NCBI GenBank assembly: GCA_040263275.1 | Contig: JBDQKM010000001.1 | Coordinates: forward strand, 1-62,099 | DNA from: Acidimicrobiales bacterium | GTDB taxonomy: Bacteria > Actinomycetota > Acidimicrobiia > Acidimicrobiales > Aldehydirespiratoraceae | Reading direction: 5' to 3' | Length of the DNA stretch: 62,099 bases | In this document: positions 5,150 through 55,468 of the stretch, in pieces | Position numbering within the stretch: position 1 is the stretch's first letter | Layout: each line of letters begins with the position of its first letter | Translations under genes and position numbers: made by a program | The notes under the pieces: generated by a model | Database searches by the model: none | Told to the model about the DNA's origin: nothing | Seen by the model: the letters and a program-made list of their open reading frames with translations, nothing else

Positions 5150-5326
5150 GGAGTTACTCCCTCTCGAGGGCCACCCAAATGTGACCCGCCGGTGCCACTG
5201 ACGCTCGGAGCGGGCCGAAAGTCGCGACAGGATCCTAGACGACCGAACTGAGCGCTGTTCAGAACGACCGGATCGGGGGGAGTGGGTAAGGTCTCGCTTC
5301 GACGTCCACCCGCGGGGAGCAACACG

Positions 5327-7314
<1,988 letters not shown>

Positions 7315-7318
<4 letters not shown>

Positions 7319-9313: not shown

Positions 9314-11149
9314 GTGACATCCATGTCCTCCGTGCGCCTCATCGCGATCGTGACCGGGGTCGTCTACCTGACCTGGCGGTTGGTCTTCACCTGGGAGGGC
9401 GCCCACCCGGTGATGTTCTTCCTCCTGCTCGCGGCCGAAGCCTTCGGCTTCCTGCGGCTCCTGATGGAGACATCGCTGCTCGGCGAACCCCGGGCGCTGG
9501 TCCGCACCCCGGAGAAGACGGTGGCCCCCGATGGCGACGTCATCGTCGTCGTGACCGACGAGTCCACCAGTGAGGTGCGTGCCGCCGTGCTTTCGGCTCG
9601 GCTCATCTCGGGATACAACAACCTCCGCATCGTGGATCGCGACAACCGGCCCGACGTGGCCGAACTCGCCGGCCGGCTCGGGCTCACCCGCATCGCCGGC
9701 GGCTTCGAGGCCGACCTCGGAGGCCTGATCGACCGGGCCATGGACGAGTGCACGTCTCTGTTCTCCCTCCTCATGCCGGCCGATGTCGTCGTGCTCCCCG
9801 ACATCCTCGAGGTGACCGCATCGGCCTTCGAGGATCCCGAGGTGGCCGTGGTGTCGTGTCGTGTCGAGAACACCAACGCGCTCCATGCCGTCGACTACGG
9901 CGGCTATGGCGAAATCCGCCGTCGCGATGAACTCATGATCGACACGCTCGACGACGCCGGTGCGTTGCCGTGGTGGCCGGGAATGGCCGTCGTCCGCCGC
10001 AGCGCCATCGGAGAGATCGACGGCATGAGCCGCGGTCGTCAGGGCGTCACCCTCTCCACCGGTGTCCGTCTCCAGTCCGTCGGCTGGAAGATCACCGATG
10101 TGCCCGTCATCGTCGCCCGTCGGCTCGCCCCCTGGAACGACGACCGCCACCTCCACCGCTGGGCCCGCGATCTCCACGAACGACTCGCCGTCCTCGTCGA
10201 CAAGGAAGCTCCGCGTCGCAACAAACACGCAAGCCGGTTGAGCCGCCGCATCTATCGGTCTGCCGACCTCCTCGTCGGCCGCAGCATCCAGCGTCTCGTC
10301 CTCATCGGCGTGCTCCTCGCCACGCTCTACTCCTCGTCACTTCCGCTCGTCGCCGATGCGCCCGTGTTGATCGGGCTGTGGGGGCTCTGGCAGATCTCGT
10401 CGATGCTCTACCGCCGGGAAGCGCAAGCGCCGATCGGGTTCACCAACTGGATGAGCAACGACCTCCGCTTGCTGGCGACCGACCTGCACGTGGCCGTGCG
10501 GGCCCTGCCGGGGCGACCGCTCGACGTGGATCTCGTCGACCCGGCTCCGGGTCGGCTGACTCGCCGCGTCGTGCTCACCAGCCTGCAGGTCGTGCTCGGG
10601 GTGTCACTCGCCCTGTTCGGCATGGGAATCGTGCGCCCCTTGCACGGCGACTTCGCCACGCTGGCCGCCCTGAGCCTCACCGCATGGTTGTGGACCATGA
10701 CGTTCCAGGCCCGAGCCGCGCTGAGGCTACGACAGGTGCGACAGAACTTCCGGGCCGTCGCCCGACTCGATGTCCTCGCCGGCGAGGCCGGCCTCGCCGT
10801 CGTCGGCGTGTCGCCCTTCGGTCTCGACGTCGTCTCGTCGAGTTCGTTGCGCCCCGGTGAGAACGTGCGGATCGCCTTCGCGCTCCCGCAGACCGACGGG
10901 GCGTCGCTCCGGTTCGAGTGCCCCTCTGCCGTCCGGCGGGTGTCTCGCATCGGCGATCGTTACGCCGCCTATCTTCGGTTCGCCCAACTCAGCGACGCCG
11001 AGGTCGACCAGATCACCGAGTACTGCTCCGTGGTGGCCGGCGTCGGTGAACTGCGCGACCAGGTCGCCGGCCAGACCGTGGCACCGCCGCCGGTCGCCGG
11101 GATGCTCGTCCAACCGCGGGCCGACGCCAACGTGGTCGCAGACGTCTGA
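9314..11149 (+). CDS. BcsA-like membrane GT2-fold protein with C-terminal PilZ domain; catalytic motifs appear degenerate
   Basis: 611 aa. N-terminal TM pair, GT2-like core, C-terminal TM bundle, then PilZ motifs RQNFR ... GVSPFG. The DxD position reads PAD, the TED position reads TLS, and QxxRW reads LHRW (alignment by eye). Confidence 0.75.
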   Translation: MTSMSSVRLIAIVTGVVYLTWRLVFTWEGAHPVMFFLLLAAEAFGFLRLLMETSLLGEPRALVRTPEKTVAPDGDVIVVVTDESTSEVRAAVLSARLISGYNNLRIVDRDNRPDVAELAGRLGLTRIAGGFEADLGGLIDRAMDECTSLFSLLMPADVVVLPDILEVTASAFEDPEVAVVSCRVENTNALHAVDYGGYGEIRRRDELMIDTLDDAGALPWWPGMAVVRRSAIGEIDGMSRGRQGVTLSTGVRLQSVGWKITDVPVIVARRLAPWNDDRHLHRWARDLHERLAVLVDKEAPRRNKHASRLSRRIYRSADLLVGRSIQRLVLIGVLLATLYSSSLPLVADAPVLIGLWGLWQISSMLYRREAQAPIGFTNWMSNDLRLLATDLHVAVRALPGRPLDVDLVDPAPGRLTRRVVLTSLQVVLGVSLALFGMGIVRPLHGDFATLAALSLTAWLWTMTFQARAALRLRQVRQNFRAVARLDVLAGEAGLAVVGVSPFGLDVVSSSSLRPGENVRIAFALPQTDGASLRFECPSAVRRVSRIGDRYAAYLRFAQLSDAEVDQITEYCSVVAGVGELRDQVAGQTVAPPPVAGMLVQPRADANVVADV

Positions 11150-14197: not shown

Positions 14198-17100
14198 GTG
14201 CCGACCTCCGACACCCACAGAGAAGCCGGCGATGCCGTTGTCATTCCGCGCGACCCGCTGGCCGTGGTCGACAGTGTCGGCGAGATGCTCGCTCGCTTCG
14301 ACGGCGAAGACCACGACACCGGCTATGCCGAGGCCTTGCGACTGCTCACCGAGGGTTTAGGCGCGACGGTGAGCGTGATCGTGCGCTTTGCCGACGACGG
14401 TGCGCATGTGGTCGGCCTCTGGGCCGGGGACCGGTTCGTGCGCGATCCGCAGATCCGGCTCGACAGCGACCTCCTCCCCGGCGGTCGACCGCTCCGTTCG
14501 ATGCGCACGCCCGTCGCCTACGTGCCCGATGACTTCGGTGAGGAAGGTGCAGCGCTCCTGAATGCCTTCGGCCCCGACCAGCACCTGTTGATGGCTCCGA
14601 TCAGCGACGCCGACCAGGTGAACGGTGCAGTCGGAGTGCTGGCGGCCGGTGCCGACCGGCTCTCGAGTCATGCCCGGATCGCGCTGCAGTTGTGCGGCGA
14701 GCTGCTCTGGCGGCATATGCGCCACCACGAATCGAGACGTGAGCTCCATGAGCGGGCCGAGGTGGCCGAGATCCTCGCCAGAGTCGGCGGCCGGCTCCAC
14801 GAGGGCGGTGTGGCCCGGGCCCGGGAGCTGCTCGACGAGGTGTTCGTGACCGTGGGCGACTATGTCGGTGCCGACCTCGTCGCGACCTACGAACGAGTCG
14901 GCGGGCGCGCCGAGCTCCTCCTCCAGTGGTCCTCGGACGGGGCCGACGCGGCTGCGCCCCTGCTCCACCTCGAGGATGCGGATTGGGATCGACTGGCCGA
15001 GCGGCCGTTGTCCAGGAGCGAGCTTGTGGGCGACCCGCTGACCGACCTGGTCCGCGACGTGAACCCTGCAGGTATCGGCTCCGGCATGGTCGTGCCCGGC
15101 CGCTCCGACGGCGAAGTCGTCGGGATCTTCGTCATCGCGAAGCGGGACAACCGCCCCTTCCGTTCCGCCCACGTCGAGCTGATCGTCGCAGCCGTCGGCT
15201 TGCTCGGTCAGTTCCGGACCCGGATGGGCGCGGAGCTCGCCCTCGTTCGGCGGGGCGTGGTCGAGCAGTGCCGCACCGAAATCGCCGAGGCGTTCATCAA
15301 CTCGCCAGCCTGCGAGATCGACGCCGCCCTGAGCAGCGCACTCCAGCGCATCGGAGGGGTGTTCGGCGCTCGGCGGGTGCGGTGGTTGGAGGTGGCCGAC
15401 GACACGAGCTCGGCCTCGTTGACCACCGAGTGGTCGGATGGCACGCGACCCTCCGGACCCGTCGAGTTCTCCGTCGACAACGTGCTCCTGGCCGAGCGGG
15501 CCGATCTTCGCGAACCCTTCGTGATCGAACCGCAGCAGATCGCGGAGCACTGTGGGATCGATTCACCGTCGTCGACCCTGATCGTCCCGACGGTCGTGGC
15601 CGAGGACGTCCGCGCCGTGCTCACCCTCACGGGCGACGGCATCAGCCACGACCTTCCCGACATCGAGCGACGGGCGCTGACCGATCTGGCCGGGCTCATC
15701 CACCAAGCCCGTCGGCGGGCCCGCCAGGAGTTGGAAGCCGAATACCGGACCACCCTCGACGACCTGCAGCTTCGACTGGCCCGTCGCTTCCTCGACCGGT
15801 CCGTCCGAGATCACCGGCCGGTGCTCGACTGGGTGCTCGGCGAACTCGGGGCGTCACTGGATTGTGACCTGATCGCCTTCGCGGAGTTCATCGGGAGTCG
15901 TGACGGCGAGATGCACTGGTGGTCGCGCGACGAGCGGAATCGCCGTGCCGCCGACCGGGTGGATCTCACTGCGCCGGTGCTCGTCGACCACTTCTCGCGG
16001 TGTCTGCAGACCGGCGAACCGGCGGTCACCCGAAGCCGTGACCTCGACGCCGAGACGGTGGCCCGGATCGGCGGTCTCGATGGGCGAGAGTTCTCGATGC
16101 TCATCGTCCCGTTCCGGGCGCCGGGTGTCGCCCTCCTGCTCGGCGTGTGTGTCTTCGGCGACCGGGAGTGGGAGGCCGTCGAAGTGGCCCTGCTCCAGAA
16201 GGTGATCGGTCAGCTCCGGCAGTTCATCGACGTGGTGTCGGGTCGCGGCAAGCTCGAGTTCGACGCGAGTCACGACGCGCTGACCGGTCTCGCGAACCGC
16301 CGCAAGATCGCCGATCAGTTCACCGACGTCATCGCCGACGGCGGCGGAGGGGCGATGCTCATGATCGACGTCGACCGGTTCAAGGTCGTCAACGACTCGC
16401 TCGGACACAGTGCCGGCGACGCGGTTCTCGTGGCGATCGCCGATCGACTCCGAACATCGGTGCGCGAGGGGGACCTCGTGGCCCGTTTCGGGGGCGACGA
16501 GTTCGCGGTGATGGTCAGGGACGGCACCAGCGATCTCGAGCTGGCGGCGACCGCCGACCGCTTGATCCGACTGATCCGCGAGCCGATCCTGGTGAGCGGC
16601 ACCACCGTCATCCCGACCTGCAGCATCGGTATCGCGGTCGCGAGTGACGGCGACGATGTCGAGGCCGTCCTCCGCCACGCCGACGCGGCCCTCTACGACG
16701 CGAAGGCGAAGGGCCGTGACCGCTACGAGTTCTTCGACGACGCGCATCGGCAGTCGCTGACCGTGCGGCTCCGTCTCGAAACCGCGCTGCGTCGTGGTGT
16801 GGCCAGAGCCGAGTTCGTTCCCTGGTTCCAGCCCGAGTACGAACTGCTCACCGGCGAGATGGTCGGGGTCGAAGCCCTGGTGCGCTGGAATCACCCGACC
16901 GAAGGCGTCGTGGATGCGTGGCGCTTCATCGACACCGCAGAGGAGATCGGCCTGGCACCGGAGCTGAGCCGGGTCGTGATGGCCCGCAGTCTCGAGACGG
17001 TGCGAGGGTGGATGGCCGAGGGGTTCGACACCCGCGTCCGGGTCAACGTGGCGGCGGGTCAGCTCCAGTCGGCCGACCTCGCCGACCAGGTCGAGGCCTT

Positions 17101-17524
17101 GCTCGAGAAGTACCAGGTGCCACCCGAGCTGTTGTGCGTCGAGATCACCGAGCGGTCCCTCATGCTCGATCTCGACTCGGCCGTCGAGGCGTTGGTGGCC
17201 GTTCGTGCGCTCGGCGTCGAGGTCGCCGTCGACGACTTCGGGACCGGGTTCAGTTCGCTGGCCCGGCTCAAGCACCTGCCGGTCGACACCCTCAAGATCG
17301 ACCGGTCGTTCGTCTCCGGCATCGTGTCGAGCGCAACCGATCGAGAGATCGTACGCACCATCATCTGGCTCAGCCGTGGCCTCGGCCTCGACGTCGTCGC
17401 GGAAGGGGTCGAGCACCCGGAACAGGTCGAACTGCTGCTCGAACTCGGTTGCCGGCGGGCCCAGGGGTGGTTGTGGACTCCGGCGGTTCCCGCTGCCGAG
17501 GTGCCTCGCCTCGCCCGCGTGTGA
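14198..17524 (+). CDS. multi-GAF sensor diguanylate cyclase/phosphodiesterase (GGDEF-EAL)
   Basis: 1108 aa. Intact GGDEF (RFGGDEFAV) with an RxxD I-site (REGD) 5 residues upstream. Intact EAL set (EALVRW, DDFGTGFSSL, KIDRSF, EGVE). The N-terminal ~650 aa are GAF-like repeats. Confidence 0.9.
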   Translation: MPTSDTHREAGDAVVIPRDPLAVVDSVGEMLARFDGEDHDTGYAEALRLLTEGLGATVSVIVRFADDGAHVVGLWAGDRFVRDPQIRLDSDLLPGGRPLRSMRTPVAYVPDDFGEEGAALLNAFGPDQHLLMAPISDADQVNGAVGVLAAGADRLSSHARIALQLCGELLWRHMRHHESRRELHERAEVAEILARVGGRLHEGGVARARELLDEVFVTVGDYVGADLVATYERVGGRAELLLQWSSDGADAAAPLLHLEDADWDRLAERPLSRSELVGDPLTDLVRDVNPAGIGSGMVVPGRSDGEVVGIFVIAKRDNRPFRSAHVELIVAAVGLLGQFRTRMGAELALVRRGVVEQCRTEIAEAFINSPACEIDAALSSALQRIGGVFGARRVRWLEVADDTSSASLTTEWSDGTRPSGPVEFSVDNVLLAERADLREPFVIEPQQIAEHCGIDSPSSTLIVPTVVAEDVRAVLTLTGDGISHDLPDIERRALTDLAGLIHQARRRARQELEAEYRTTLDDLQLRLARRFLDRSVRDHRPVLDWVLGELGASLDCDLIAFAEFIGSRDGEMHWWSRDERNRRAADRVDLTAPVLVDHFSRCLQTGEPAVTRSRDLDAETVARIGGLDGREFSMLIVPFRAPGVALLLGVCVFGDREWEAVEVALLQKVIGQLRQFIDVVSGRGKLEFDASHDALTGLANRRKIADQFTDVIADGGGGAMLMIDVDRFKVVNDSLGHSAGDAVLVAIADRLRTSVREGDLVARFGGDEFAVMVRDGTSDLELAATADRLIRLIREPILVSGTTVIPTCSIGIAVASDGDDVEAVLRHADAALYDAKAKGRDRYEFFDDAHRQSLTVRLRLETALRRGVARAEFVPWFQPEYELLTGEMVGVEALVRWNHPTEGVVDAWRFIDTAEEIGLAPELSRVVMARSLETVRGWMAEGFDTRVRVNVAAGQLQSADLADQVEALLEKYQVPPELLCVEITERSLMLDLDSAVEALVAVRALGVEVAVDDFGTGFSSLARLKHLPVDTLKIDRSFVSGIVSSATDREIVRTIIWLSRGLGLDVVAEGVEHPEQVELLLELGCRRAQGWLWTPAVPAAEVPRLARV

Positions 17525-17580
17525 ATACTCTGTAGCTGCATCGCACACACCGTGACGATCGTGTGATCCAGGAGGGCACC

Positions 17581-17715
17581 TTGGAGCCGACCGACATCCA
17601 GGACCAGACCAGCACCGACGAAGTCGTCGACACCGCCGCCGAGAGTGGCGAACTCGTCGAGGACGAGCTGCTCGTCGAGGAGATCTCCATCGACGGGATG
17701 TGCGGCGTCTACTAG
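17581..17715 (+). CDS. mftA: mycofactocin precursor peptide MftA (44 aa; not in the ORF track)
   Basis: TTG start at 17581 with GGAGGG 5 nt upstream (alternative in-frame GTG at 17563); TAG at 17713-17715. Translation LEPTDIQDQTSTDEVVDTAAESGELVEDELLVEEISIDGMCGVY ends in the invariant MftA core IDGMCGVY. mftB and mftC follow immediately. Confidence 0.88.
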   Translation: MEPTDIQDQTSTDEVVDTAAESGELVEDELLVEEISIDGMCGVY

Positions 17716-17719
17716 CCCG

Positions 17720-17986
17720 ATGGACTTCGATGCCGGCCGTCGCTACCGGTTGCACGAGCGCGTCGCCCTTCGCCCCGAACCCTTCGGTGCCTTGGCCTAC
17801 CACTACGGCAATCGTCGATTGAACTTCCTCCGCGCCCCCGAGCTCGTCACCGTCGTCGAGTCGCTCGACGATCACGACACACCGCGGGCGGCATTCGACG
17901 CGGCCGGGATCGAACCCCGCCGGTGGCCATCGTTCGAGAAGGCCCTCGCCTCGCTCGCCGCATCCGACTTCCTGGTGGCCGCATGA
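17720..17986 (+). CDS. mftB: mycofactocin biosynthesis chaperone MftB (RRE peptide-binding protein)
   Basis: 88 aa from the ATG at 17720 (MDFDAGRRYRLHERVALRPEPFGALAYHYGNRRLNFL...), the typical MftB N-terminus. The track start at 17645 would overlap mftA. Its stop overlaps the mftC start (ATGA). Confidence 0.9.
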   Translation: MDFDAGRRYRLHERVALRPEPFGALAYHYGNRRLNFLRAPELVTVVESLDDHDTPRAAFDAAGIEPRRWPSFEKALASLAASDFLVAA

Positions 17987-19155
17987 CCGATCTGCAGATA
18001 CCCACCACACCGGTGCCCGGCAACCTCGTGCTGTCGCCGGTCAAGCAGAGCGGCCTCGGCGAACAGATGAAGGCCGGACTCGACGCCCCCATCTGCCTCA
18101 CCTGGGAACTCACCTATGCGTGCAACCTCCAGTGTGTGCACTGTCTCTCGTCGAGTGGGCGCCGCGACCCCCGTGAGCTGACCACCGCCGAAGCGGAGGC
18201 CGTCATCGACGAGCTCGAGCGGATGCAGGTCTTCTACATCAACATCGGCGGCGGAGAACCCACGATCCGCCCCGACTTCTGGCACCTCGTCGAGTACGCC
18301 GTCGACCACGGGGTCGGAGTGAAGTTCTCCACGAACGGGTCGAAGATCGACGCCGACGTCGCCCGCAAGCTCGCCGGCATGGACTATGTCGACGTCCAGA
18401 TCTCGATCGACGGTGCCGACGCCGCCACCAACGACGCCGTCCGCGGCGAGGGTTCGTTCGCCACCGCCGTCGCGGCGATGGAGCACCTCCACGACGCCGG
18501 TTTCGGCGAGTTCAAGATCAGCGTCGTCATGACCCGCCACAACATCCCTCAGGTCGACGAGTTCAAGGCGATGGCCGACCGGTTCGGGGCCCAACTCCGG
18601 CTGACCCGCTTCCGCCCGTCCGGTCGCGGAGCCGACAGCTGGCACGAGCTGCACCCGACCGACCAACAGCAGCGCGACCTCTACCACTGGCTCCTCGATC
18701 GGCCCGATGTGCTGACCGGCGACTCGTTCTTCCACCTGTCGGCCCTCGGCGAGGCGCTTCCCGGTCTCAACCTGTGTGGCGCCGGTCGCGTCGTGTGCCT
18801 GATCGATCCGCTCGGCGATGTCTACGCGTGTCCCTTCGTGCTGCACGACGAGTTCCTCGCCGGCAGCGTGCGAGACGAAGGCGGCTTCCAACGGGTCTGG
18901 CAGGAGAGCGATCTCTTCCGCGAGCTCCGCGAGCCCCAGTCGGCCGGTGCGTGTGCTTCGTGTGGCCACTTCGACGCCTGCCAGGGCGGCTGCATGGCGG
19001 CCAAGTTCTTCACGGGCATTCCGCTCGACGGTCCCGATCCCGAGTGTGTGCTCGGGCATGGCGAGCCGCTCGTCGAGGCCGCCGACCAGGCGCTGCGCCC
19101 GGTCGGCCAGGACCACTCCCGTCCCACCCCGGTGAAGTTCCTCGGCCGCAAGTGA
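17983..19155 (+). CDS. mftC: mycofactocin radical SAM maturase MftC (rSAM/SPASM)
   Basis: 390 aa from the ATG at 17983. CxxxCxxC cluster (YACNLQCVHC), GGGEP, and C-terminal SPASM cysteines (CGAGR...YACPF...CASCGHFDACQGGC). Confidence 0.95.
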   Translation: MTDLQIPTTPVPGNLVLSPVKQSGLGEQMKAGLDAPICLTWELTYACNLQCVHCLSSSGRRDPRELTTAEAEAVIDELERMQVFYINIGGGEPTIRPDFWHLVEYAVDHGVGVKFSTNGSKIDADVARKLAGMDYVDVQISIDGADAATNDAVRGEGSFATAVAAMEHLHDAGFGEFKISVVMTRHNIPQVDEFKAMADRFGAQLRLTRFRPSGRGADSWHELHPTDQQQRDLYHWLLDRPDVLTGDSFFHLSALGEALPGLNLCGAGRVVCLIDPLGDVYACPFVLHDEFLAGSVRDEGGFQRVWQESDLFRELREPQSAGACASCGHFDACQGGCMAAKFFTGIPLDGPDPECVLGHGEPLVEAADQALRPVGQDHSRPTPVKFLGRK

Positions 19156-20090: not shown

Positions 20091-20624
20091 CTAGGGCCGC
20101 TGATCCCGCACGGTCTTCACGTGGTCGATCGCCTCGCGTAGCTCGCGGATCCAGTCGTCCTCGTGTTGGCCGACGAGACGCACGCACCACGCCAAGGCCT
20201 CGCTACGACTGCGGGCGACACCGGCGTCGATCAGGGTGTCGAGCACCTGGCGCTCGTCGATCCGCAGCCGGGTCATGGCCGGCGCGTTGACGGTGGTGAA
20301 CCGGGCTTCCGTCTCGCCGCAGACGACCGCCCAACTCACCTTGCGGGCGAAGGTGGCCTCGGCCTCGTCGGCGATCGTCATTCGCTGTTCGCGGGTGGCC
20401 TCCCGAAAGGCCACGATCTGTTGTTCGTGGCTGAGTCCGGCGCCGGGGGGGCCGAGGTTGCCGGTGACGAGGATCTCGTCGGCGTCGTGGCGCACCGTCG
20501 GCGGCTCGACGAACCAGCCGTCGGGGAGCGCGTCGGCGAACCAACCGAGGAGGGTGGCCGTGTCGGTGGCCGGCGCAGCGGCGGAACGCTCACGTCGGGA
20601 TCGGGGGGTGCGGGGAGGAGTCAT
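20091..20624 (-). CDS. hypothetical protein with C-terminal ribbon-helix-helix-like domain
   Basis: Track ORF trimmed to the ATG at 20624 (MTPPRTPRS...). C-terminal MTRLRIDERQVLDTLIDAGVARSRSEALAWCVRLV resembles CopG/RHH. The start choice is uncertain. Confidence 0.55.
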   Translation of the reverse strand: MTPPRTPRSRRERSAAAPATDTATLLGWFADALPDGWFVEPPTVRHDADEILVTGNLGPPGAGLSHEQQIVAFREATREQRMTIADEAEATFARKVSWAVVCGETEARFTTVNAPAMTRLRIDERQVLDTLIDAGVARSRSEALAWCVRLVGQHEDDWIRELREAIDHVKTVRDQRP

Positions 20625-20688
20625 GGGAATAGTTCGTAACCTAGATCGTTGTAAGCCAGTAATCAAGAACTGGAGGAAGGCTCATTAC

Positions 20689-22692
<2,004 letters not shown>

Positions 22693-25030: not shown

Positions 25031-26209
25031 ATGCGCGTGGGTAATCCCTGGTTTGAAACGGTCGCCATCGCTCAGGAGCGGGCCAAGAAGCGACTCCCGA
25101 AGTCGGTCTACGGCGCCCTGATCGCCGGTGCCGAGGCCGGCATCTCGATGCGCGACAACGTGTCGGCCTTCGACGAGATCGGCTTCCGGCCGGTCACGGC
25201 CGGCCAGGCCGCCGAGCGTTCGATGGACGTCACGGTCATGGGCCAGTCGGCATCGATGCCGGTGATCATGTCGCCCACCGGCGTGCAGGCCGTGCATCCC
25301 GACGGTGAGGTCGCCGTCGCGGCCGGAGCCGCCAATCGGGGCATTCCTTCCGGTCTCAGCTCGTTCGCCTCGAAGCCGATCGAAGAGGTCGCGGCCGTCA
25401 ATTCGCAGCTCTTCTTCCAGATCTACTGGGCCGGCGACAAGGACTCCATGCTCGCCCGGATCGCCCGGGCCAAGGCGGCGGGCGCCGTCGGTCTGATCCT
25501 CACGCTCGACTGGTCGTTCTCGCACGGCCGCGACTGGGGAAGCCCGGCCATCCCGCAGTCCTTCACCCTCAAGGAACTCATTCCTCATGCCCCCGACGTG
25601 CTCCGCAAGCCGCGCTGGGCGTGGACCTGGGCGAAGTCGGGTCAGATCCCGCGGCTGACGGTGCCCAACTTCGCGACCGGCGGCGACACGCCGCCGGTCT
25701 TCTTCGAGGCCTACGGCACCTGGATGGGCACACCCCCGCCGACGTGGGACGATGTCGCCTGGCTGCGTGAGCAGTGGGACGGGCCGTTCATGGTCAAGGG
25801 CGTCGTGCGGGCCGACGAGGCCCGTCGCGCCGTCGACGCCGGCGCCACCTGCGTGTCGGTCTCGAACCACGGCGGCAACAATGTCGACGGCGCCCCTGCG
25901 TCGATCCGCATGTTGCCGGAGATTGTGGCCGCGGTCGGCGATCAGGTCGAGGTCGTGCTCGACGGTGGCGTGCGCCGCGGATCCGATGTGGTCAAGGCCT
26001 GCGCTCTGGGCGCCGATGCGGTGCTCATCGGTCGCGCCTACCTCTGGGGCCTCGCCGCCAACGGCCAGGCCGGTGTCGAGAACGTGCTCGACATCCTGCG
26101 CGGTGGCATCGACGCGACCCTTCGGGGCATCGGCGTCGACTCGATCGCCGATCTCACGCCCGACGACGTCATCGTCCCCGACGGCTTCTCACCGCCGCCC
26201 CTCGGCTGA
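25031..26209 (+). CDS. mftD: pre-mycofactocin synthase MftD (FMN-dependent alpha-hydroxy-acid-oxidase fold)
   Basis: 392 aa. The N-terminus NPWFETVAIAQERAKKRLPKSVYGALIAGAE... is characteristic of MftD. FMN-dehydrogenase motifs are present (SNHGGN, GGVRRGSDVVKA). Confidence 0.88.
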   Translation: MRVGNPWFETVAIAQERAKKRLPKSVYGALIAGAEAGISMRDNVSAFDEIGFRPVTAGQAAERSMDVTVMGQSASMPVIMSPTGVQAVHPDGEVAVAAGAANRGIPSGLSSFASKPIEEVAAVNSQLFFQIYWAGDKDSMLARIARAKAAGAVGLILTLDWSFSHGRDWGSPAIPQSFTLKELIPHAPDVLRKPRWAWTWAKSGQIPRLTVPNFATGGDTPPVFFEAYGTWMGTPPPTWDDVAWLREQWDGPFMVKGVVRADEARRAVDAGATCVSVSNHGGNNVDGAPASIRMLPEIVAAVGDQVEVVLDGGVRRGSDVVKACALGADAVLIGRAYLWGLAANGQAGVENVLDILRGGIDATLRGIGVDSIADLTPDDVIVPDGFSPPPLG

Positions 26210-28736: not shown

Positions 28737-29561
28737 TCAGACGGGGTCGCCCACCGCCACTCGCGCCATCTCCCGTCGAGCCGGGAAGTGGTCACCGGTC
28801 GCGAAGTGCTGGGTCGACCGTTCGTCCCAGAGGCACAACTCGCCCACGGTCCACCGGTGGCGGAGGCAGTGGTTGGGTTGCACGGCGTGGTCGACGAGGA
28901 AGCCGAGCAGGGCGTCGGACTCCGCGGGTTCGAGTTCGACGATCCGACGGGTGAACTGCTTGTTGACGGCGAGATAGCGACGCCCGGTCGTCGGGTGGGT
29001 GCCCACCACCGGGTGTCGGGTGTCGGGCAGCAACGTCTTGGCCATCTCGAAGACGTCGACCCCGCCCTTGGTCTTGAACGCCTCGCCCGACCCGATGTCG
29101 TGATGGGCGGTGAGCCCGTCGAGCGCGTCCCGCAGTCGGGGCGACAGGCTGTCGTAGGCGGCGTACATCGAGGCCCAGAGCGTGTCGCCGCCCTGTTCCG
29201 GCATCTCGATCGGGCGCAGCGACCCGATCGTGGGCGGGGCGAGATCCCAGCTCACGTCGGTGTGCCAGCGATCCTGGAAGGGTGGGTGGTCGGCGTCGTC
29301 GACGATGTGCTCGACCATGGCCTCGGTACGGCCGGCCACCCGGGCGAGGGGATGGACGTAGGGCGAGCCGACACGAAGCAGCAATTCGAGATGCTGTGGA
29401 TCGGTGAGGTCCTCCTGGCCCCGAACGAAGACCACCTGGTGTTCGTGCACGGCAGCGACGACCTCGGCCAGCGTGTCGTCGTCGATCGTGTCGAGCCTCG
29501 GGAGTCCGGTCAGGGTCGCGCCGAGCACCGATGTGCACCGCTGCGTCTCGAAGGAGGCCAT
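28737..29561 (-). CDS. TauD/TfdA-family Fe(II)/2-oxoglutarate dioxygenase
   Basis: 274 aa. WHTDVSW (HxD facial triad) and the distal His region (TAHHDIG). Confidence 0.85.
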   Translation of the reverse strand: MASFETQRCTSVLGATLTGLPRLDTIDDDTLAEVVAAVHEHQVVFVRGQEDLTDPQHLELLLRVGSPYVHPLARVAGRTEAMVEHIVDDADHPPFQDRWHTDVSWDLAPPTIGSLRPIEMPEQGGDTLWASMYAAYDSLSPRLRDALDGLTAHHDIGSGEAFKTKGGVDVFEMAKTLLPDTRHPVVGTHPTTGRRYLAVNKQFTRRIVELEPAESDALLGFLVDHAVQPNHCLRHRWTVGELCLWDERSTQHFATGDHFPARREMARVAVGDPV

Positions 29562-29584
29562 GGCGGGACACTACCGTCGGCGAC

Positions 29585-30250
29585 ATGCGCCTGGGATCCC
29601 GTCCGTCGTCGGCAGTCGCCGACGGTGGCCATCTCCTTCTCGTGCCCTTGGGCGCGACGGAACAGCACGGCCCCCACCTGCCGCTCGACACCGACACGCG
29701 CATTGCGGTGGCCGTGGCGGACGGGGTCGCACTGCGGATCGAGGGAGCGCTCGTCGCACCGGCGATCGCCATCGGTGCGTCGGGCGAACACGCCGGCTTC
29801 GCGGGCACGCTGTCGGTCGGCACCAAGGTCCTTGCCGACATGCTCGTCGAGATCGTCCGGACCGCCGGACCCGAGTTCACGCGCATCGTGGTGGTCAACG
29901 CCCACGGCGGCAACGCCTATGCCTTGCGGGCCGCGACGGCGACGTGCGCGGCCGAGGGTCGTTCGCTCGAGGTCTGGTCGGTGCGTCTGCCCGGGGCCGA
30001 CGCCCACGCAGGACGCACCGAGACGTCGCTCCTGCTTCATCTCGCACCGGAGTCGGTCTTGCTCGACCGGGCCGCGGCCGGCAACACCGCCCCCCTCGAG
30101 GAGTTGCTCCCCCCGATGATGGAAGGCGGCGTGGGCGAGGTCTCGGCCAACGGCGTGCTCGGCGATCCCACCGGCGCGGATGCCGCCGAAGGGGCGGCGT
30201 TGTTGCGACAGCTGGTCGATGCCGCGGTGGCCCAGATCGCCGACGGGTAG
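29585..30250 (+). CDS. mftE: mycofactocin precursor peptidase MftE (creatininase fold)
   Basis: 221 aa from the ATG at 29585. LLLVPLGATEQHGPHLPLDTDTRIA is the creatinine-amidohydrolase/MftE signature. TACCGT sits 7 nt upstream of the ATG, consistent with a leaderless-type -10. Confidence 0.85.
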   Translation: MRLGSRPSSAVADGGHLLLVPLGATEQHGPHLPLDTDTRIAVAVADGVALRIEGALVAPAIAIGASGEHAGFAGTLSVGTKVLADMLVEIVRTAGPEFTRIVVVNAHGGNAYALRAATATCAAEGRSLEVWSVRLPGADAHAGRTETSLLLHLAPESVLLDRAAAGNTAPLEELLPPMMEGGVGEVSANGVLGDPTGADAAEGAALLRQLVDAAVAQIADG

Positions 30251-31144: not shown

Positions 31145-32284
31145 ATGAAGACGCGTGCTGCGGTGCTCTACGGGGCCCATCAGGAATGGCAGGTCGAGGA
31201 GATCGAGCTCGATCCCCCGGGCAAGGGTGAGGTACTGGTCAAGACACACGCCGCCGGCCTCTGTCACTCCGACGAACATCTGGTGACCGGCGACCTCGGC
31301 ACGCCCGACGAGCTCGGCGGGTCGTCGCTGTTCCCGGTGATCGGTGGTCACGAGGGTTCGGGGGTCGTCATCGAGATCGGTGAGGGCGTGACCGACTTCG
31401 AGGTCGGCGACCATGTCGCCGTCTCGTTCGTCCCGGCCTGCGGCAAGTGCCGCTGGTGCGCGTCGGGTCAGCAGAACCTGTGTGACCTGGGCGCCGGCAC
31501 GCTCGGCCCCGGCATGATCAGCGATGGCCGCTGCGGTCATCACGGTCCCGGTGGCAAGGACATCAACACGATGGCGAAGCTCGGCACGTTCGCCGAGCAC
31601 ATGCTCCTGCACCAGGACTCCCTCATCAAGGTCGACAAGGACATCCCCCTGATCCCGGTCGCCCTGGTCAGCTGTGGCGTGGCGACGGGCTACGGCTCGG
31701 CGGTGAACCGCGCCGAGGTGACCGCGGGCGACACCGTCGTGGTGGTCGGCTGTGGAGGTATCGGCGCCAACGCGCTCCAGGGAGCCAAGGCGGCCGGCGC
31801 GAAGAATGTCGTCGCCGTCGATCTCTCCGAGTTCAAGCGCGAGAAGGCCGCCGAGTTCGGCGCCACCCACACCGCGGCCTCCATGGAGGAGGCGATGGAA
31901 CTCGTCGGCGGGCTCACCGAGGGCGTGATGGCCGACAGCGTGATCGTCTCGGCCGGCGTCGTCACCGGCGATCTCATCGCCCCGGCCCAGTTCCTGACCC
32001 GCAAGGGCGGCACGATCGTGGTCACCGGCCTCGCGCCGATGATGCAGATGGACGTACAGCTCAACCTGTTCGAGTTCGCGATGATGAACAAGCAGATCAA
32101 GGGCACGATCTTCGGTTCCGACAGCCCGCGGCGAGCAGTGCCTCGCCTGCTGGGTCTGTACCAGGCCGGTCAGTTGAAGCTCGACGAGCTGGTCACCAAG
32201 ACCTACAGCCTCGATCAGATCAACGAGGGCTATCAGGACATGCGCGACGACAAGAACATCCGCGGGGTGCTCGTCTTCGACTAG
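31145..32284 (+). CDS. Zn-dependent alcohol dehydrogenase, NDMA-/mycofactocin-dependent type (Rxyl_3153-like)
   Basis: 379 aa. GLCHSDEH, GGHEGSG, CGKCRWCASGQQNLCD, and GCGGIG. GGAGG SD lies upstream. Confidence 0.88.
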   Translation: MKTRAAVLYGAHQEWQVEEIELDPPGKGEVLVKTHAAGLCHSDEHLVTGDLGTPDELGGSSLFPVIGGHEGSGVVIEIGEGVTDFEVGDHVAVSFVPACGKCRWCASGQQNLCDLGAGTLGPGMISDGRCGHHGPGGKDINTMAKLGTFAEHMLLHQDSLIKVDKDIPLIPVALVSCGVATGYGSAVNRAEVTAGDTVVVVGCGGIGANALQGAKAAGAKNVVAVDLSEFKREKAAEFGATHTAASMEEAMELVGGLTEGVMADSVIVSAGVVTGDLIAPAQFLTRKGGTIVVTGLAPMMQMDVQLNLFEFAMMNKQIKGTIFGSDSPRRAVPRLLGLYQAGQLKLDELVTKTYSLDQINEGYQDMRDDKNIRGVLVFD

Positions 32285-34258: not shown

Positions 34259-35371
34259 ATGAAGACCAGAGCTGCCATTCTCCGTGAAGTCGGTGCCGAC
34301 TGGAGTGTCGAGGAGATCGAGCTCGACGATCCGCAGCCCGGCGAGATCCTCGTCAAGACCCTCGCGGCCGGCATGTGCCATTCCGACGAGCACGCCCACG
34401 ACGGCACGATGCCCGTCCCGCTGCCGCTCGTGGGTGGTCACGAAGGCGCCGGCGAGGTCATCGGCCTCGGCGAGGGCGTCACCGAATTCGAGATCGGCGA
34501 CCATGTGTCGTGCTCGTTCATCCCCTCCTGCGGCAAGTGCCGGTGGTGCGCCTCGGGCCAGCAGAACCTCTGCGACCTCGGAATGCACCTGATGGAGCCC
34601 GGGATGATGGCCGGCGGTTTCCGTCACCACAGCGCGGCCGGCGAGGATCTCACCCCGCTCCTCAAGCTCGGCACCTTCGCCGAACACATGATCCTCAGCG
34701 TCGACTCCGCCATCAAGGTGCAGAAGGACGTGCCCGCCGGTCCCGCCGCGCTGGTGAGCTGCGGTGTCACGACCGGATACGGCTCGGCCGTCAACCGGGC
34801 TGGCGTCACCGCCGGCGACACGGTGGTCATCGTCGGTGCCGGTGGCCTCGGCCATGCCGCCATCCAGGGCGCGAAGGTCGCCGGGGCCAAGAACGTCATC
34901 GCCGTCGATCCGTCCGAGTTCAAGCGCGAGAGCGCCCAGGAGTTCGGCGCCACGCACGCGGCCGAGTCCATGGAGGAAGCGATGGCGCTCGTCGGCGGCA
35001 TCACCGAGGGCGTGATGGCCGACAGTGTCATCCTCACCCCGGGTGTCCTCACCGGCGACATGATCGCTCCGGCCCAGTTCCTCACCCGCAAGGGCGGCAC
35101 CATCGTTGCGACGGCGGTGGCCAACGCGATGGCGATGGACGTCCAGCTCAACCTCTTCGAGTTCGCCATGATGAACAAGGAACTCAAGGGTTGCCTCTTC
35201 GGCTCGGCCGCTCCCCGCAAGGAGATCCCGCATCTCCTGTCCATGTACCAGGCCGGTCAGCTCAAGCTCGACGAGATGATCACCAACACCTACACGCTCG
35301 ATCAGGTGAACGAGGGCTACGCCGACATGCTCGCGAACAAGAACGTTCGCGGCGTGATCATGTTCGACTGA
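34259..35371 (+). CDS. Zn-dependent alcohol dehydrogenase, NDMA-/mycofactocin-dependent type (paralog of 31145..32284)
   Basis: 370 aa from the ATG at 34259 (MKTRAAILREVGADWSVEEIELD...). Same CGKCRWCASGQQNLCD block as the first ADH, and roughly two-thirds identical to it by eye. Confidence 0.88.
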   Translation: MKTRAAILREVGADWSVEEIELDDPQPGEILVKTLAAGMCHSDEHAHDGTMPVPLPLVGGHEGAGEVIGLGEGVTEFEIGDHVSCSFIPSCGKCRWCASGQQNLCDLGMHLMEPGMMAGGFRHHSAAGEDLTPLLKLGTFAEHMILSVDSAIKVQKDVPAGPAALVSCGVTTGYGSAVNRAGVTAGDTVVIVGAGGLGHAAIQGAKVAGAKNVIAVDPSEFKRESAQEFGATHAAESMEEAMALVGGITEGVMADSVILTPGVLTGDMIAPAQFLTRKGGTIVATAVANAMAMDVQLNLFEFAMMNKELKGCLFGSAAPRKEIPHLLSMYQAGQLKLDEMITNTYTLDQVNEGYADMLANKNVRGVIMFD

Positions 35372-38997: not shown

Positions 38998-39037
38998 GGC
39001 CCGAGCGTAGGCGGTGACCGGGGGTACCGTCCTGTGC

Positions 39038-40477
39038 ATGGCCGACCTGCTGCCGCCGTCGGGCATCCGCCTCGTGGCCGACGAAGGGCTGCGTCGACTC
39101 GACGAGGGGCGAGTGCTCGTGGGCGGTTCTCCTCTGCGCATCGTCACGTTGTCCGAGGCCGGCGCGGCCGTGGTCGAGGCCTGGGTCGGCGGGCGTCCGC
39201 TCGCCGCGGTGCGATCGGCGAGAGTCCTGGCTCGTCGGCTGCTCGACGCCGGCATGCTCCACCCGGTCGTCACGCCGGTCGACACCCCGGTGCCGGTCAC
39301 GGTCGTCGTGCCGGTGAAGGACGACGCCGACGGTCTCGCTCGGCTGTTGCCGACGATCGGCAGCCCGACGGTGATCACGACCGTGGTGGTCGACGACGGG
39401 TCGGGTGATGCCGACGCGATCGCCCGCGTCGCCCGAGCCCATGGCGCGACCCTCGAGCGTCGTGAGACGAGCGGTGGCCCAGGGGTGGCCCGCATGACCG
39501 GTCTCGATCGGGTCGAGACCGCGCTCGTCGCGTTCGTCGATGCCGACGTCGAGTTGCCCCTGGGCTGGTGGACCGCGCTCTCGCCCCACTTCGACGACCC
39601 GGCGGTGGTCGCCGTCGCCCCGCGCGTCGCCAGCGCCCCCGGTCCCTCCCTCCGCGAGCGCTACGAGGCGGTTCACTCGCCGCTCGACCTCGGCGCCTCG
39701 CCCGCATCGGTGGCGCCCCGACGGCGGATGGCCTACGTGCCGAGCGCCGTGTTGACGGCCCGCGTCGATGCCGTCCGCGCGGCGGGAGGCTTCGACCCCG
39801 ACCTGCGCACGGGAGAAGACGTCGATCTGGTGTGGCGGCTGGCCGACCGAGGGGGGACGGTGCGCTACGCACCAGAAGTCCGAGCGCAGCACCGACCCCG
39901 TGGATCGTGGTTGGCAATGGTTCGACAACGTGTGGACTACGGGGCGTCGGCTGCCGCCCTCGCCGAGCGGCACGGCGCGGCGGTCGCGCCGGCGCGGTGT
40001 TCCCGTTGGAGTCTGGGCGCCTGGGGCCTCGTCGCCCTCGGCCGACCCCTGTCGGGCCTGGCCGTGGCTGCCGGTTCCACGGCGGCGCTGGCCCGTCGAC
40101 TGTCCGGTCTTCCCGGTGGCCGTCGTGAGGCGTTGCGAATCGCCGGGTGGGGCAATCTCCACGCGGGAACCGGTCTGGCTCGCGCGGTGTCGCGGGTGTG
40201 GTGGCCGGTCGCGTTGCCGCTGGCCCGGTTTCGGCCCCTCCGCCGTGCGGTGATCGGCGCGATGGTCCTCCCCGCGGCGGCGGGGTGGGTCCGTGGGCTC
40301 AGACCGGCCGGTCCCGTTCGATCCGTTGCGCTGCGAATCGCCGACGACATGGCCTACGGCATCGGCGTCTGGCGGGGTGTCGTCAGCCGGCGAGACCCCC
40401 GTGCCCTGCTGCCGGAGTTGACCGAGTGGCCGGGCGGGCGCGGGCCCGTCGAGACCGATACGGTCGCGACGCGATGA
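39038..40477 (+). CDS. mftF: mycofactocin glycosyltransferase MftF (GT2)
   Basis: N-terminal mft-specific domain, then a GT2 core (VTVVVPVKDD...VVVDDGSGD...AFVDADV...GEDVDLVWRL), then C-terminal TM segments. The ATG at 39038 is preferred because TACCGT lies 7 nt upstream; the track GTG at 39014 is the alternative. Confidence 0.85.
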   Translation: MADLLPPSGIRLVADEGLRRLDEGRVLVGGSPLRIVTLSEAGAAVVEAWVGGRPLAAVRSARVLARRLLDAGMLHPVVTPVDTPVPVTVVVPVKDDADGLARLLPTIGSPTVITTVVVDDGSGDADAIARVARAHGATLERRETSGGPGVARMTGLDRVETALVAFVDADVELPLGWWTALSPHFDDPAVVAVAPRVASAPGPSLRERYEAVHSPLDLGASPASVAPRRRMAYVPSAVLTARVDAVRAAGGFDPDLRTGEDVDLVWRLADRGGTVRYAPEVRAQHRPRGSWLAMVRQRVDYGASAAALAERHGAAVAPARCSRWSLGAWGLVALGRPLSGLAVAAGSTAALARRLSGLPGGRREALRIAGWGNLHAGTGLARAVSRVWWPVALPLARFRPLRRAVIGAMVLPAAAGWVRGLRPAGPVRSVALRIADDMAYGIGVWRGVVSRRDPRALLPELTEWPGGRGPVETDTVATR

Positions 40478-48324: not shown

Positions 48325-49020
48325 ATGGCGCAGAGCAAGCAGTACCGAGACAACGCCCAGAAGTACGACCGAGATCGCCTGCACTCCGACGAGGAGGCCG
48401 TGGCGATCGTCAAGTCGTTGGGCACCAAGAAGTTCGACGAGACCGTCGACGCGGTGATCCGCCTCGGTGTCGACCCGCGCAAGGCGGATCAGATGATCCG
48501 GGCCACCGTGGCGTTGCCCGCGGGCACCGGCAAGGACGTGCGCATCGCCGTCTTCGCGCAGGGTGAGGCCGCCCAGGCGGCCCGTGACGCCGGCGCCGAT
48601 CACGTCGGTGGCGACGATCTCGCTGCCGAGGTCGAGAAGGGCATGACCGACTTCGACCTGGCGATCGCGACGCCCGACATGATGCCGACGGTCGGCAAGC
48701 TGGGCCGTGTCCTCGGTCCTCGCGGCCTGATGCCCAACCCGAAGACCGGCACGGTCACGCCCGACGTCGCCAAGGCGATCGGCGAGTTCAAGGGTGGCAT
48801 GGTCGAATACCGCACCGACCGGTTCGCCAATGTCCATGTGCCGATCGGCAAGGCGTCCTTCGACGAGTCGGCGTTGCTGACCAACCTTCGTGCGCTCATC
48901 ACCGAGCTCGAGCGGGTGCGCCCTGCGTCGGCCAAGGGTGACTACATGCGCAAGGTCGTGCTCAGCACGACGATGGGTCCCGGCGTGCGCGTCGACCCGA
49001 AGCGGATCGTCACCTCCTGA
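48325..49020 (+). CDS. rplA: 50S ribosomal protein L1
   Basis: 231 aa. [23 protein letters not shown]...[16 protein letters not shown]. Confidence 0.95.
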
Positions 49021-49307
49021 CCGGAGGAAGTCACCGATCGGCGCTCTACGATGATCGCCACAACTGAGATCTTTGTTCACCGAAGACATCCGGTGCGCTC
49101 CGCGGGGAGCACCAATGGGCCAGCAGGCTCGCCGGACGAGGAGAGCTTCCTGACTGCCACAGTCTCTTGTGGTTCGCCTGGGCGTTCGCCGAAATCGGTG
49201 GGCGCCCAGTTCGCATTTTCGGATGGGAACGTGAACCAGGAACCAACGTTTCGGCGGGGTTCCGCGAGTCCGGCCACATGTGCCGGAATGAAGAGGAGGT
49301 GACAGAT
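49021..49307 (+). promoter_or_regulatory. long untranslated rplJ leader (candidate L10(L12)n autoregulatory leader)
   Basis: A 287-nt gap of visibly lower GC than the flanking genes. The track ORFs inside it have poor codon bias. The position matches the known L10 leader, but the structure was not verified here. Confidence 0.4.
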
Positions 49308-50054
49308 ATGGGAGACCCGAGACCCGAGAAGGTTGCGGTCGTCGACGAGGTGAAGCAGATGCTCGCCGATGCCGACGGCGCAATGCTGACCGAGTACCGC
49401 GGCCTCGACGTGGCGGCCCTGGCCGATCTCCGTCGTGCGCTCCGCGATGCCGGCGGTGAGTACAAGATCTACAAGAACACGCTCGTGCGCCTTGCGGCGC
49501 GTGATGCAGGACTGGAGATCGACGACCTTCTGACCGGTCCGACGGCCATCGCCTTCGTGGGCGACAAGGCCGACGGATCTGCCGGTGACGTCGCGGCCGT
49601 GGCGAAGGCCCTCAAGGACTTCGCCAAGACCAACGATGCGCTGGTGATCAAGGGAGGCGTGGTCGACGATCAGCTGCTGAGCGCAGACGATCTGAAGGCC
49701 CTGGCCGAACTGCCGTCTCGCGACGTGTTGCTGTCGATGCTGGCCGGAGCGCTCCAGGCGCCCATGGCCAAGTTCGCCGGCCTGCTCGCCGCGGTGCCCC
49801 GCGACTTCGCCTACGGCCTGCAGGCCCTCATCGAGAAGGGTGGCGGCCCCGATGCGGCGGCCGACGCGCCCGTCATCGAAGAGGCTCCGGCCGAGGACGC
49901 AGCCGAAGAGGCTCCGGCCGAGGACGCAGCCGAAGAACCTGGTGAGGCCGCCGAGGCCGACGCCACCGAAGAAACCACAGAAACCACAGAAGCCGAGGCG
50001 TCAGCCGACGCCGGCGACGATTCCGGCGATGCCGGTGAGGAAGAGGAGGCCTGA
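49308..50054 (+). CDS. rplJ: 50S ribosomal protein L10 with a ~70-aa acidic repeat tail
   Basis: 248 aa from the ATG at 49308 (GAGGAGG SD). The L10 core ([13 protein letters not shown]...[14 protein letters not shown]...YKIYKNTLV) is followed by a Glu/Ala/Asp-rich tail. Confidence 0.9.
49878..49931 (+). repeat. perfect 27-nt tandem duplication inside the rplJ tail
   Basis: GAAGAGGCTCCGGCCGAGGACGCAGCC occurs twice (49878-49904 and 49905-49931), encoding EEAPAEDAA twice, and is followed by a partial third unit. A 9-nt GAAACCACA doublet follows at 49971-49988. Confidence 0.9.
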
Positions 50055-50056
50055 TC

Positions 50057-50437
50057 ATGGCTACCAAGGAAGAGATTCTCGACGCGATCGGCGCCATGAG
50101 CGTCCTCGAGCTGAGTGAGCTCCTGTCGGACTTCGAAGAGAAGTTCGGCGTGACCGCTGCTGCTCCCGCAGCCGTTGCCGTTGCTGCCCCCGCGGGTGGC
50201 GGCGATGCCGGTGCGGCCGAGGAGAAGGATTCGTTCGACGTCGTGCTCACCAGCGCCGGCGACAAGAAGATCCAGGTCATCAAGGAGGTGCGCGGTCTCA
50301 CGTCCCTCGGTCTCAAGGAAGCCAAGGAGCTCGTCGACAACGCGCCGAAGCCGATTCTCGAAGGCGCGTCGAAGGACGACGCCGAGAAGGCCAAGGAAGC
50401 CCTCGAGGCTGCCGGCGGCTCGGTCGAACTCCAGTAA
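50057..50437 (+). CDS. rplL: 50S ribosomal protein L7/L12
   Basis: 126 aa. [23 protein letters not shown]...[24 protein letters not shown]. Confidence 0.95.
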
Positions 50438-50465
50438 CACCCGCCCTCCGGGGCAACCAGTAGTC

Positions 50466-50501
50466 GCGAACCGCGTCGGCCTCAGGGTCGGCGCGGTTCG
50501 C
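50466..50501 (+). terminator. 16-bp hairpin downstream of rplL (terminator/attenuator candidate)
   Basis: GCGAACCGCGTCGGCC-TCAG-GGTCGGCGCGGTTCGC (two G-U pairs), followed by CGTTCTGG with a weak U-tract. Confidence 0.45.
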
Positions 50502-50562
50502 CGTTCTGGCGCAGGTGGCGCGCCGCCCGGCGACGGCGGATGGTCGGGCCTAGGGTGCCATC

Positions 50563-51555
50563 GTGACTGATCCGATTTCCCATGTGAACGTCCTGTCGGT
50601 CGATGACGAGTTGATCGTCACCTGGCGTGGCGGATCCGACGAGATGTCGGTGTTCCTCTCCGACGACCCGGTCGACGCCGGCACCGATGTGCGCGCCCCC
50701 GACGCCCCCGGACAGGCCCGGCTGCCGATCAACTCCCGTCGACCCTACGTGCACCTGTTCGAGCCGACCCAGGGGTTCGTGGTCGCGGCGGAACGTCGTC
50801 TCGCGATGGACGGACCGTCGAACTTCCGCGACCTGGGCGGCTATCCGACCCTGGACGGCGCGTGGACTCGTTGGGGTCAGGTGTTTCGCAGTGATGGGCT
50901 GCACGAGCTGTCCGACCGGGATCATGCGCTGATGGGCGAGTTGGAGATCACGACCGTGTTCGATCTCCGCTCCCACGGTGAGGTCGAGCAGGCGCCGGAC
51001 CGGCTGCCGGACGGGGTGCGTCACGTGCACCTCCCGATGTCGAGCGACGTTGCCCAGGGTCGCTCGATGCTCGAGCGGATCGTCGACGGCGACCTGCCGA
51101 AGTTCGACGAGGACGACATGGCCGACGGCTACCTCCGGATGCTGGAGGGGTTCCCGGAGTTCCTGTCCGAGATGTTGCACACCGTCGCCGAGGGCGAGAA
51201 GGTCCTCTTCCACTGCACCGCCGGCAAGGACCGAACCGGGATCACCGCGATGACCATGCTCGGCCTGGCCGGTGTCGCCGACTCCTACATCCTCGACGAC
51301 TACGAGGTCTCGGCCCGCTACCGGGCGCATTCGGTCGAGGGATCGAACTGGTTCGCCGACCGCATCCGCGAGGCGGGTTACGACCCCGACGACTTCCACG
51401 CGATGTGGGGTTCGCCCCGACCGGCGATGCGCAAGACGCTCGACGGTCTGCGCGACCGGTGGGGCGACCACGACGAGTACGTCCGCAGCATCGGGGTGAG
51501 TGACGACGCCGCAGGCCGTGTCCGGACCCGGTTGCGACACGCGGACCCGGTCTGA
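50563..51555 (+). CDS. protein-tyrosine/dual-specificity phosphatase-like protein (CX5R, Y_phosphatase3-like)
   Basis: 330 aa. Active-site loop HCTAGKDRTG. The GTG start at 50563 has TAGGGT 6 nt upstream. Confidence 0.8.
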   Translation: MTDPISHVNVLSVDDELIVTWRGGSDEMSVFLSDDPVDAGTDVRAPDAPGQARLPINSRRPYVHLFEPTQGFVVAAERRLAMDGPSNFRDLGGYPTLDGAWTRWGQVFRSDGLHELSDRDHALMGELEITTVFDLRSHGEVEQAPDRLPDGVRHVHLPMSSDVAQGRSMLERIVDGDLPKFDEDDMADGYLRMLEGFPEFLSEMLHTVAEGEKVLFHCTAGKDRTGITAMTMLGLAGVADSYILDDYEVSARYRAHSVEGSNWFADRIREAGYDPDDFHAMWGSPRPAMRKTLDGLRDRWGDHDEYVRSIGVSDDAAGRVRTRLRHADPV

Positions 51556-51604
51556 TCGCCGCGCGTTTCGAGATCACAATCCGGTTGCATGTGGCCGAGC
51601 GTCC

Positions 51605-51633
51605 TTGACCTCGCGGTCCCGAGCATTTACCGT
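51605..51633 (+). promoter_or_regulatory. candidate sigma-A promoter upstream of rpoB
   Basis: TTGACC (51605-51610), a 17-nt spacer, then TACCGT (51628-51633). This fits the actinobacterial TTGACN-17-TANNNT consensus. Prediction by eye only. Confidence 0.3.
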
Positions 51634-51851
51634 TCGCGATCAATCCGCCCGACTCGATCGGCCCGGATCGTGCACCGCCCGCTACGGCCGGTGCCGGTTC
51701 TGGTTGCCCGAGAGTTGCTGCACTGACGCGGAAGCACTAGCGTGCAAAGCAACGTGGTCGTCCTCGCGCCTGTTCCGAATCAATGTCTTCGGTTCTCCGC
51801 GCCCCGACGACTGCGTTGTCGTCCTCATCCACGGCCAACTCTGGAGCCAAG

Positions 51852-55442: not shown

Positions 55443-55468
55443 GACCGGGAAGACGAGGGAGTAACAAC

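Follow-up and report, generated by a model that had tools for sequence, protein, structure and literature searches.

The DNA analysed here, a stretch of 62,099 nucleotides referred to as the window, belongs to a marine Acidimicrobiales MAG. Reading of the sequence between 17400 and 18100 revealed a short forward-strand frame of 44 codons that runs from a TTG at 17581-17583 to a TAG at 17713-17715, with an in-frame GTG at 17563 as an alternative start that would give 50 codons to the same stop. We consider it highly likely (probability of about 95%), judging from the sequence, that this frame is mftA, encoding the ribosomal peptide precursor of the redox cofactor mycofactocin. The 44-aa product starting at the TTG is LEPTDIQDQTSTDEVVDTAAESGELVEDELLVEEISIDGMCGVY, while translation from the GTG would yield the 50-aa product VIQEGTLEPTDIQDQTSTDEVVDTAAESGELVEDELLVEEISIDGMCGVY. 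Coordinates and translation are as given in the first-pass annotation, which also described a 56-nt gap behind a GGDEF-EAL gene; the ORF of that gene does end at 17524. The positions of all features are collected in Table 1.

The MftA translation exceeds the curated cut-off of TIGR03969, the search proposed in the first-pass annotation, with 46 bits (cut-off 25, E 3.3e-12), and also matches PF23709 with 44.1 bits (cut-off 27, E-value 2.3e-11). It ends in ...EEISIDGMCGVY, placing IDGMCGVY directly before the stop and Val-Tyr at the very C-terminus. With MftC as query, 80 related loci were identified in species-representative genomes, with MftC identity ranging from 95% down to about 70%. At 77 of these 80 loci, a frame ending in ...SIDGMCGVY is found just upstream of mftB/mftC, and the previously proposed IDGMCGVY core thus recurs wherever a peptide frame was found. 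The core of MftA is the C-terminal Val-Tyr of ...SIDGMCGVY. Overall, both the N-terminus (fMet-Glu-Pro-Thr-Asp) and the C-terminus (...LLVEEISIDGMCGVY) of the peptide are conserved, and they are joined by an acidic linker that varies. The GC content by codon position of the mftA frame (0.68/0.32/0.93) is typical for genes of this window, which has an overall GC content of 68%. A consensus scan of 17300-18100 returned no match to a sigma-70-like promoter or terminator around mftA. Between 17480 and 17730, a single imperfect inverted repeat pair was detected, located within the mftA coding sequence, and no operator-like site was seen in the 56-nt gap.

Table 1 Features of the mft region (positions refer to the window)
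Feature	Position	Strand	Basis
Acetate-CoA ligase	5282-7318
GGDEF-EAL gene, directly upstream of mftA, outside the mft system	14198..17524	+	GGDEF and EAL family matches
Six in-frame codons from GTG, probably 5' untranslated leader containing the Shine-Dalgarno sequence	17563..17580	+	No Shine-Dalgarno sequence before 17563, no conservation upstream of the Shine-Dalgarno sequence
AGGAGG, Shine-Dalgarno sequence of mftA, 5-nt spacing to the start codon	17570..17575	+	Sequence; same column conserved in closest relatives
mftA, encoding the 44-aa mycofactocin precursor (start TTG, stop TAG)	17581..17715	+	TIGR03969, PF23709, GC3 0.93, start column, public peptide
mftB, peptide chaperone, 88 aa	17720..17986	+	TIGR03967 105 bits (cut-off 33); match spans 2-84 of 85 model positions
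mftC, radical SAM/SPASM maturase, 390 aa	17983..19155	+	TIGR03962 625 bits (cut-off 265)
Between mftC and mftD: alpha/beta-hydrolase-like ORF, AbmR-like regulator, lon, YccA-like membrane protein, CoA-transferase
mftD, pre-mycofactocin synthase	25031..26209	+	TIGR03966 650 bits (cut-off 471); match spans 2-384 of 385 model positions
Between mftD and mftE: two acyl-CoA dehydrogenases, TauD-like dioxygenase
mftE, peptidyl-dipeptidase	29531..30250	+	TIGR03964 275 bits (cut-off 172), match from residue 27
Between mftE and mftF: two alcohol dehydrogenases, thioesterase, asparaginase, AAA ATPase, VWA protein, amidohydrolase
NDMA-dependent (mycofactocin-type) Zn alcohol dehydrogenase	31145..32284	+	TIGR03989 523 bits (cut-off 440)
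Second NDMA-dependent alcohol dehydrogenase	34259..35371	+	TIGR03989 505 bits (cut-off 440); ATG 34259 just before model match
mftF, glycosyltransferase	39014..40477	+	TIGR03965 372 bits (cut-off 280); match spans 3-466 of 467 model positions

The 80 loci are nearly all found in Acidimicrobiales or Acidimicrobiia MAGs, for example Ca. Aldehydirespiratoraceae and Microthrix, and the window is therefore not mycobacterial. At locus L069 (5660-5888), which comes from a low-coverage Acidimicrobiia MAG, a stretch of 230 nt contains three copies of the 3' end of mftA (ACGGAATGTGCGGCGTCTACTGA). Between them lie two 100%-identical copies of a GC-rich element of about 60 nt, resulting in two extra short frames that end in HGMCGVY before the stop. 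This triplication is due either to the insertion of a small repeat or to an artefact of assembly.

The first-pass annotation referred to mftA as untracked. This is correct for the ORF track filtered at 60 aa, but the gene has already been called by public gene callers. A mechanical ORF list with a 25-aa threshold contains the frame as 17563..17715 (50 aa), so that the 60-aa cut-off alone had hidden it. Exact-sequence look-up located both the 44-aa and the 50-aa form in public collections, where PF23709 is precomputed and cluster mates carry the name 'mycofactocin precursor'. The mftA gene reported here is thus already known and a matter of ordinary annotation: its family has been modelled since 2011 and the exact peptide is publicly called and Pfam-labelled. 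In the literature searched, we found no paper pairing mycofactocin with Acidimicrobiia, and 'Aldehydirespiratoraceae' was mentioned only in unrelated sponge-symbiont work. Mycofactocin genes appear to be widespread in uncultured marine Acidimicrobiales.

Translation start and N-terminal leader of MftA

Sequence features around the two candidate start codons make TTG 17581, and thus a 44-residue peptide, the most likely outcome of translation. When Shine-Dalgarno sequences were scanned at all loci, TTG 17581 was found to be preceded by a perfect AGGAGG (6/6) at a spacing of 5 nt, while GTG 17563 has a 3/6 match. The ribosome binding site had earlier been described as GGAGGG located 5 nt upstream of the TTG; GGAGGG (17571-17576) is in fact 4 nt away and it is AGGAGG (17570-17575) that lies at 5 nt. 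In an alignment of the window with nine close relatives, a start codon occurs 4-6 nt behind AGGAGG and falls into a single column: eight of the nine relatives have ATG, L002 has GTG and the window has TTG. Upstream of the Shine-Dalgarno sequence, similarity drops away. Between the start and stop columns, indels leave the reading frame intact in each of the ten sequences and the core is almost invariant. Considering the 58 loci with a Shine-Dalgarno match of at least 5/6, TTG is the rarest start codon (39 ATG, 18 GTG, 1 TTG) and peptide lengths range from 33 to 55 aa with a median of 41.

The near-identical public contigs L083-L086 carry GTG at the position of 17581 and the peptide is called there as 44 aa. 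TTG is found at this position in the window, L081 and L082, where automatic callers use the upstream GTG instead and report 50 aa. The existence of two public peptide forms is thus explained by callers switching to the upstream GTG whenever codon 17581 is TTG, and the GTG/TTG difference itself is a start-codon polymorphism within one population.

The same gene could in principle be translated from GTG 17563 into a 50-aa precursor (MIQEGTLEPTD...), as proposed by the automatic callers for L081 and L082, and GTG is a commoner start codon than TTG. We nevertheless regard this reading as improbable: GTG 17563 is not preceded by a Shine-Dalgarno sequence, the conserved AGGAGG itself would fall inside the six additional codons, relatives show no conservation upstream of it, the callers themselves select the codon at 17581 in sister contigs where it is GTG, and the closest relatives have ATG in this column. 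The TTG start favoured in the first-pass annotation is consequently preferred here on the basis of the Shine-Dalgarno sequence, the aligned column and the near-identical contigs. A small gain of this analysis is that the 50-aa automatic call on TTG-carrying contigs is to be corrected to 44 aa.

Starting from TTG 17581, MftA possesses an N-terminal leader of some length. Haft 2011 (PMC3023750) supposed that long N-terminal regions of MftA proteins were mostly the result of wrong start predictions. Across the Acidimicrobiales clade, however, the long leader looks real when sequences are compared. A total of 21 distinct mftA sequences retain [start]-Glu-Pro-Thr/Ser-Asp/Glu, with each of the four Pro codons and either Glu codon in use, and preservation of the motif amid such synonymous variation argues for protein-level selection on codons 2-5. 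In a sister sub-clade, the corresponding leader reads Met/Val-Lys-Pro-Ile/Leu-Asn/Asp. A more far-reaching proposal would be that the leader is real and selected, as opposed to a mis-called start, and possibly offers the maturation enzymes a second element for recognition, and that the strain-variable GGDEF-EAL gene located 56 nt upstream may couple mftA transcription to a c-di-GMP signalling gene; taken as a whole, we view this as speculative and rather unlikely.

Arrangement of the mft genes and their neighbours

All six genes mftA-F are present in the window, full length and scoring above the respective equivalog cut-offs, with the true start of mftE probably located somewhat downstream of 29531. 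They are scattered over about 23 kb (17581-40477) and do not form a compact mycobacterial-style mftABCDEF operon. The gaps amount to 5.9 kb between mftC and mftD, 3.3 kb between mftD and mftE and 8.8 kb between mftE and mftF, each containing unrelated genes. The first-pass annotation had interpreted the whole central region as a mycofactocin locus; this stands insofar as mftA-F all lie in the window, but the intervening genes set mftD, mftE and mftF apart, both from mftABC and from one another. A tblastn comparison against the 80 loci showed that in L005-L007, mftABCDE are found in order and close together, 58-210 nt apart. Across related Acidimicrobiales loci, the mftC-mftD interval varies from less than 0.1 kb to about 6 kb due to the insertion of 1-6 kb of differing genes. 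A compact operon is one arrangement and not a defining feature of the mycofactocin system.

No family match to mftR (TetR regulator) or mftG (GMC oxidoreductase) was obtained among about 45 ORFs of the window that were scanned. Both are accessory genes and may be located elsewhere in the genome; mftG is missing from about 25% of mftC-bearing genomes (PMC11778925). The lack of both genes among the scanned ORFs, the spread of the mft genes over 23 kb and the interruption of the neighbouring lon gene by an in-frame TAG could be taken to indicate that mftA, although intact, is part of a decaying or non-functional mycofactocin system. We deem this very improbable given the full-length state of mftA-F, the presence of the identical MftA peptide on at least 13 contigs from independent samples and the fact that gene dispersal and a variable mftC-mftD region are common to the clade while the genes themselves stay conserved.

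The first three genes are tightly packed. As previously noted, mftC follows mftB with an ATGA overlap (17983-17986) and both encoded proteins score above their equivalog cut-offs. The placement of mftB directly downstream of mftA was likewise correct, but 4 nt, not 5, lie between the stop codon of mftA and the ATG of mftB (17720). Based on the 4-nt spacer and the ATGA overlap, mftA, mftB and mftC are probably co-transcribed and translationally coupled. MftC contains the radical-SAM motif CNLQCVHC at residues 47-54 and eight further cysteines in its C-terminal half. The exact 88-aa MftB protein is found on 11 public contigs under the name MftB.

The mechanical list further contains a 113-aa ORF (17645..17986) that still matches the MftB model and, starting from GTG 17645, would turn the peptide region into an N-terminal extension of mftB with no separate peptide gene. 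This reading is effectively refuted and can be ruled out based on model coordinates and codon-position composition: the model match starts at residue 30 of the 113-aa form, equivalent to residue 5 of the 88-aa form found in public collections, the 25 extra residues (VANSSRTSCSSRRSPSTGCAASTSP) are serine- and arginine-rich with an off-frame GC distribution (0.28/0.92/0.72; GC3 of 0.72 vs 0.93 in the mftA frame), and the overlapping frame yields the high-scoring and widely conserved MftA match. The first-pass annotation had already remarked that 17645..17986 would bury the peptide in an mftB extension. A chance ORF at the position of mftA is ruled out by the family-model E-values together with conservation across relatives.

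The GGDEF-EAL gene directly upstream of mftA shows a presence/absence polymorphism. It is cleanly deleted in L083 and L084 (2750-3000), whose mftABC genes are near-identical to those of the window (1572 of 1574 nt in L083), and kept in L085 and L086. In L083, about 3.3 kb of the gene is gone, with remnants of both its ends located between an F420-type LLM oxidoreductase gene and mftA. Further upstream, at about 3 kb from the GGDEF-EAL gene, a 611-aa protein is encoded (9314-11149, forward strand) that matches family-2 glycosyltransferases weakly and has a PilZ domain at its C-terminus; judging by these features, it could represent a c-di-GMP-controlled polysaccharide synthase.

The lon protease gene (20236-22692, forward strand) is split by a single in-frame TAG at 21910-21912 (...DHLLPRL*EQNAV..., asterisk denoting the stop). 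The lon frame is uninterrupted in five relatives, four of which encode Tyr or Phe at the TAG position. Two explanations come into question for the TAG: a nonsense mutation (TAY to TAG), or an error made in assembly or sequencing. Divergently oriented next to lon, an AbmR-like ATP-binding transcription factor is encoded (20091-20666, reverse strand; NF058631, 203 bits, cut-off 160), and the AbmR-lon pair recurs in L004, L009, L019 and L038. Downstream of the mft genes, the region 48325-59386 (forward strand) contains rplA and rplJ as well as two large ORFs (1219 and 1305 aa, at 51783-59386), which by size and position are candidates for rpoB and rpoC. In M. tuberculosis, the mft genes (Rv0691A-Rv0696) also lie near rpoBC (Rv0667-Rv0668). 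The proximity of the mft genes to the candidate rpoBC may represent old synteny.

Proposed pathway and comparison with known systems

The pathway proposed here follows mycobacterial work summarised in PMC11778925, while the evidence in the window consists of gene presence, integrity and family membership. MftB would bind the MftA peptide, whose terminal Tyr would then be decarboxylated and cross-linked to Val by the radical-SAM enzyme MftC. The resulting cyclised dipeptide (AHDP) would be released by MftE and deaminated by MftD to redox-active premycofactocin, to which MftF is predicted to add beta-1,4-glucose units. Finally, the finished cofactor would accept electrons from the two nearby NDMA-type (nicotinoprotein) alcohol dehydrogenases. 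Both belong to TIGR03989, a family built as mycofactocin-associated in Haft 2011 (PMC3023750), and the enzyme encoded at 31145..32284 is, by its family membership, a likely redox partner. The presence of mftA marks the genome as mycofactocin-capable and accounts for the nearby NDMA-type alcohol dehydrogenases.

The MftA family was described in Haft 2011 (PMC3023750), which listed the M. tuberculosis H37Rv gene adjacent to Rv0692 as a 'missed gene call'. Similar to mycobacterial MftA, the peptide described here carries a C-terminal ...SIDGMCGVY with the terminal Val-Tyr directly before the stop, preceded by an acidic LLVEE-type region. Its gene likewise lies immediately upstream of mftB and mftC and is short enough to escape length-filtered ORF lists. 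In contrast to the mycobacterial systems, the host is an uncultured marine Acidimicrobiales lineage, the gene starts with TTG, and the 44-aa peptide, with its conserved Met-Glu-Pro-Thr-Asp/Glu and variable acidic linker, extends well beyond the 23-aa conserved region. Further differences from mycobacteria are the location of mftD, mftE and mftF apart from mftABC and the lack of mftR and mftG among the ORFs scanned.

A second point of comparison is the pyrroloquinoline quinone (PQQ) system. Like MftA, PqqA is very short, is made by ribosomes and consumed in the formation of a redox cofactor, and is often missed in annotation (Haft 2011, PMC3023750). The PQQ system also employs a radical SAM/SPASM enzyme (PqqE), which is paired with PqqD, a small peptide-binding protein and the analogue of MftB (PMC3023750), and the MftC of the window shows a weak match to the PqqE model. 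The two precursor peptides, however, share no sequence similarity, and while PQQ is derived from an internal Glu and Tyr, mycofactocin originates from the C-terminal Val-Tyr.
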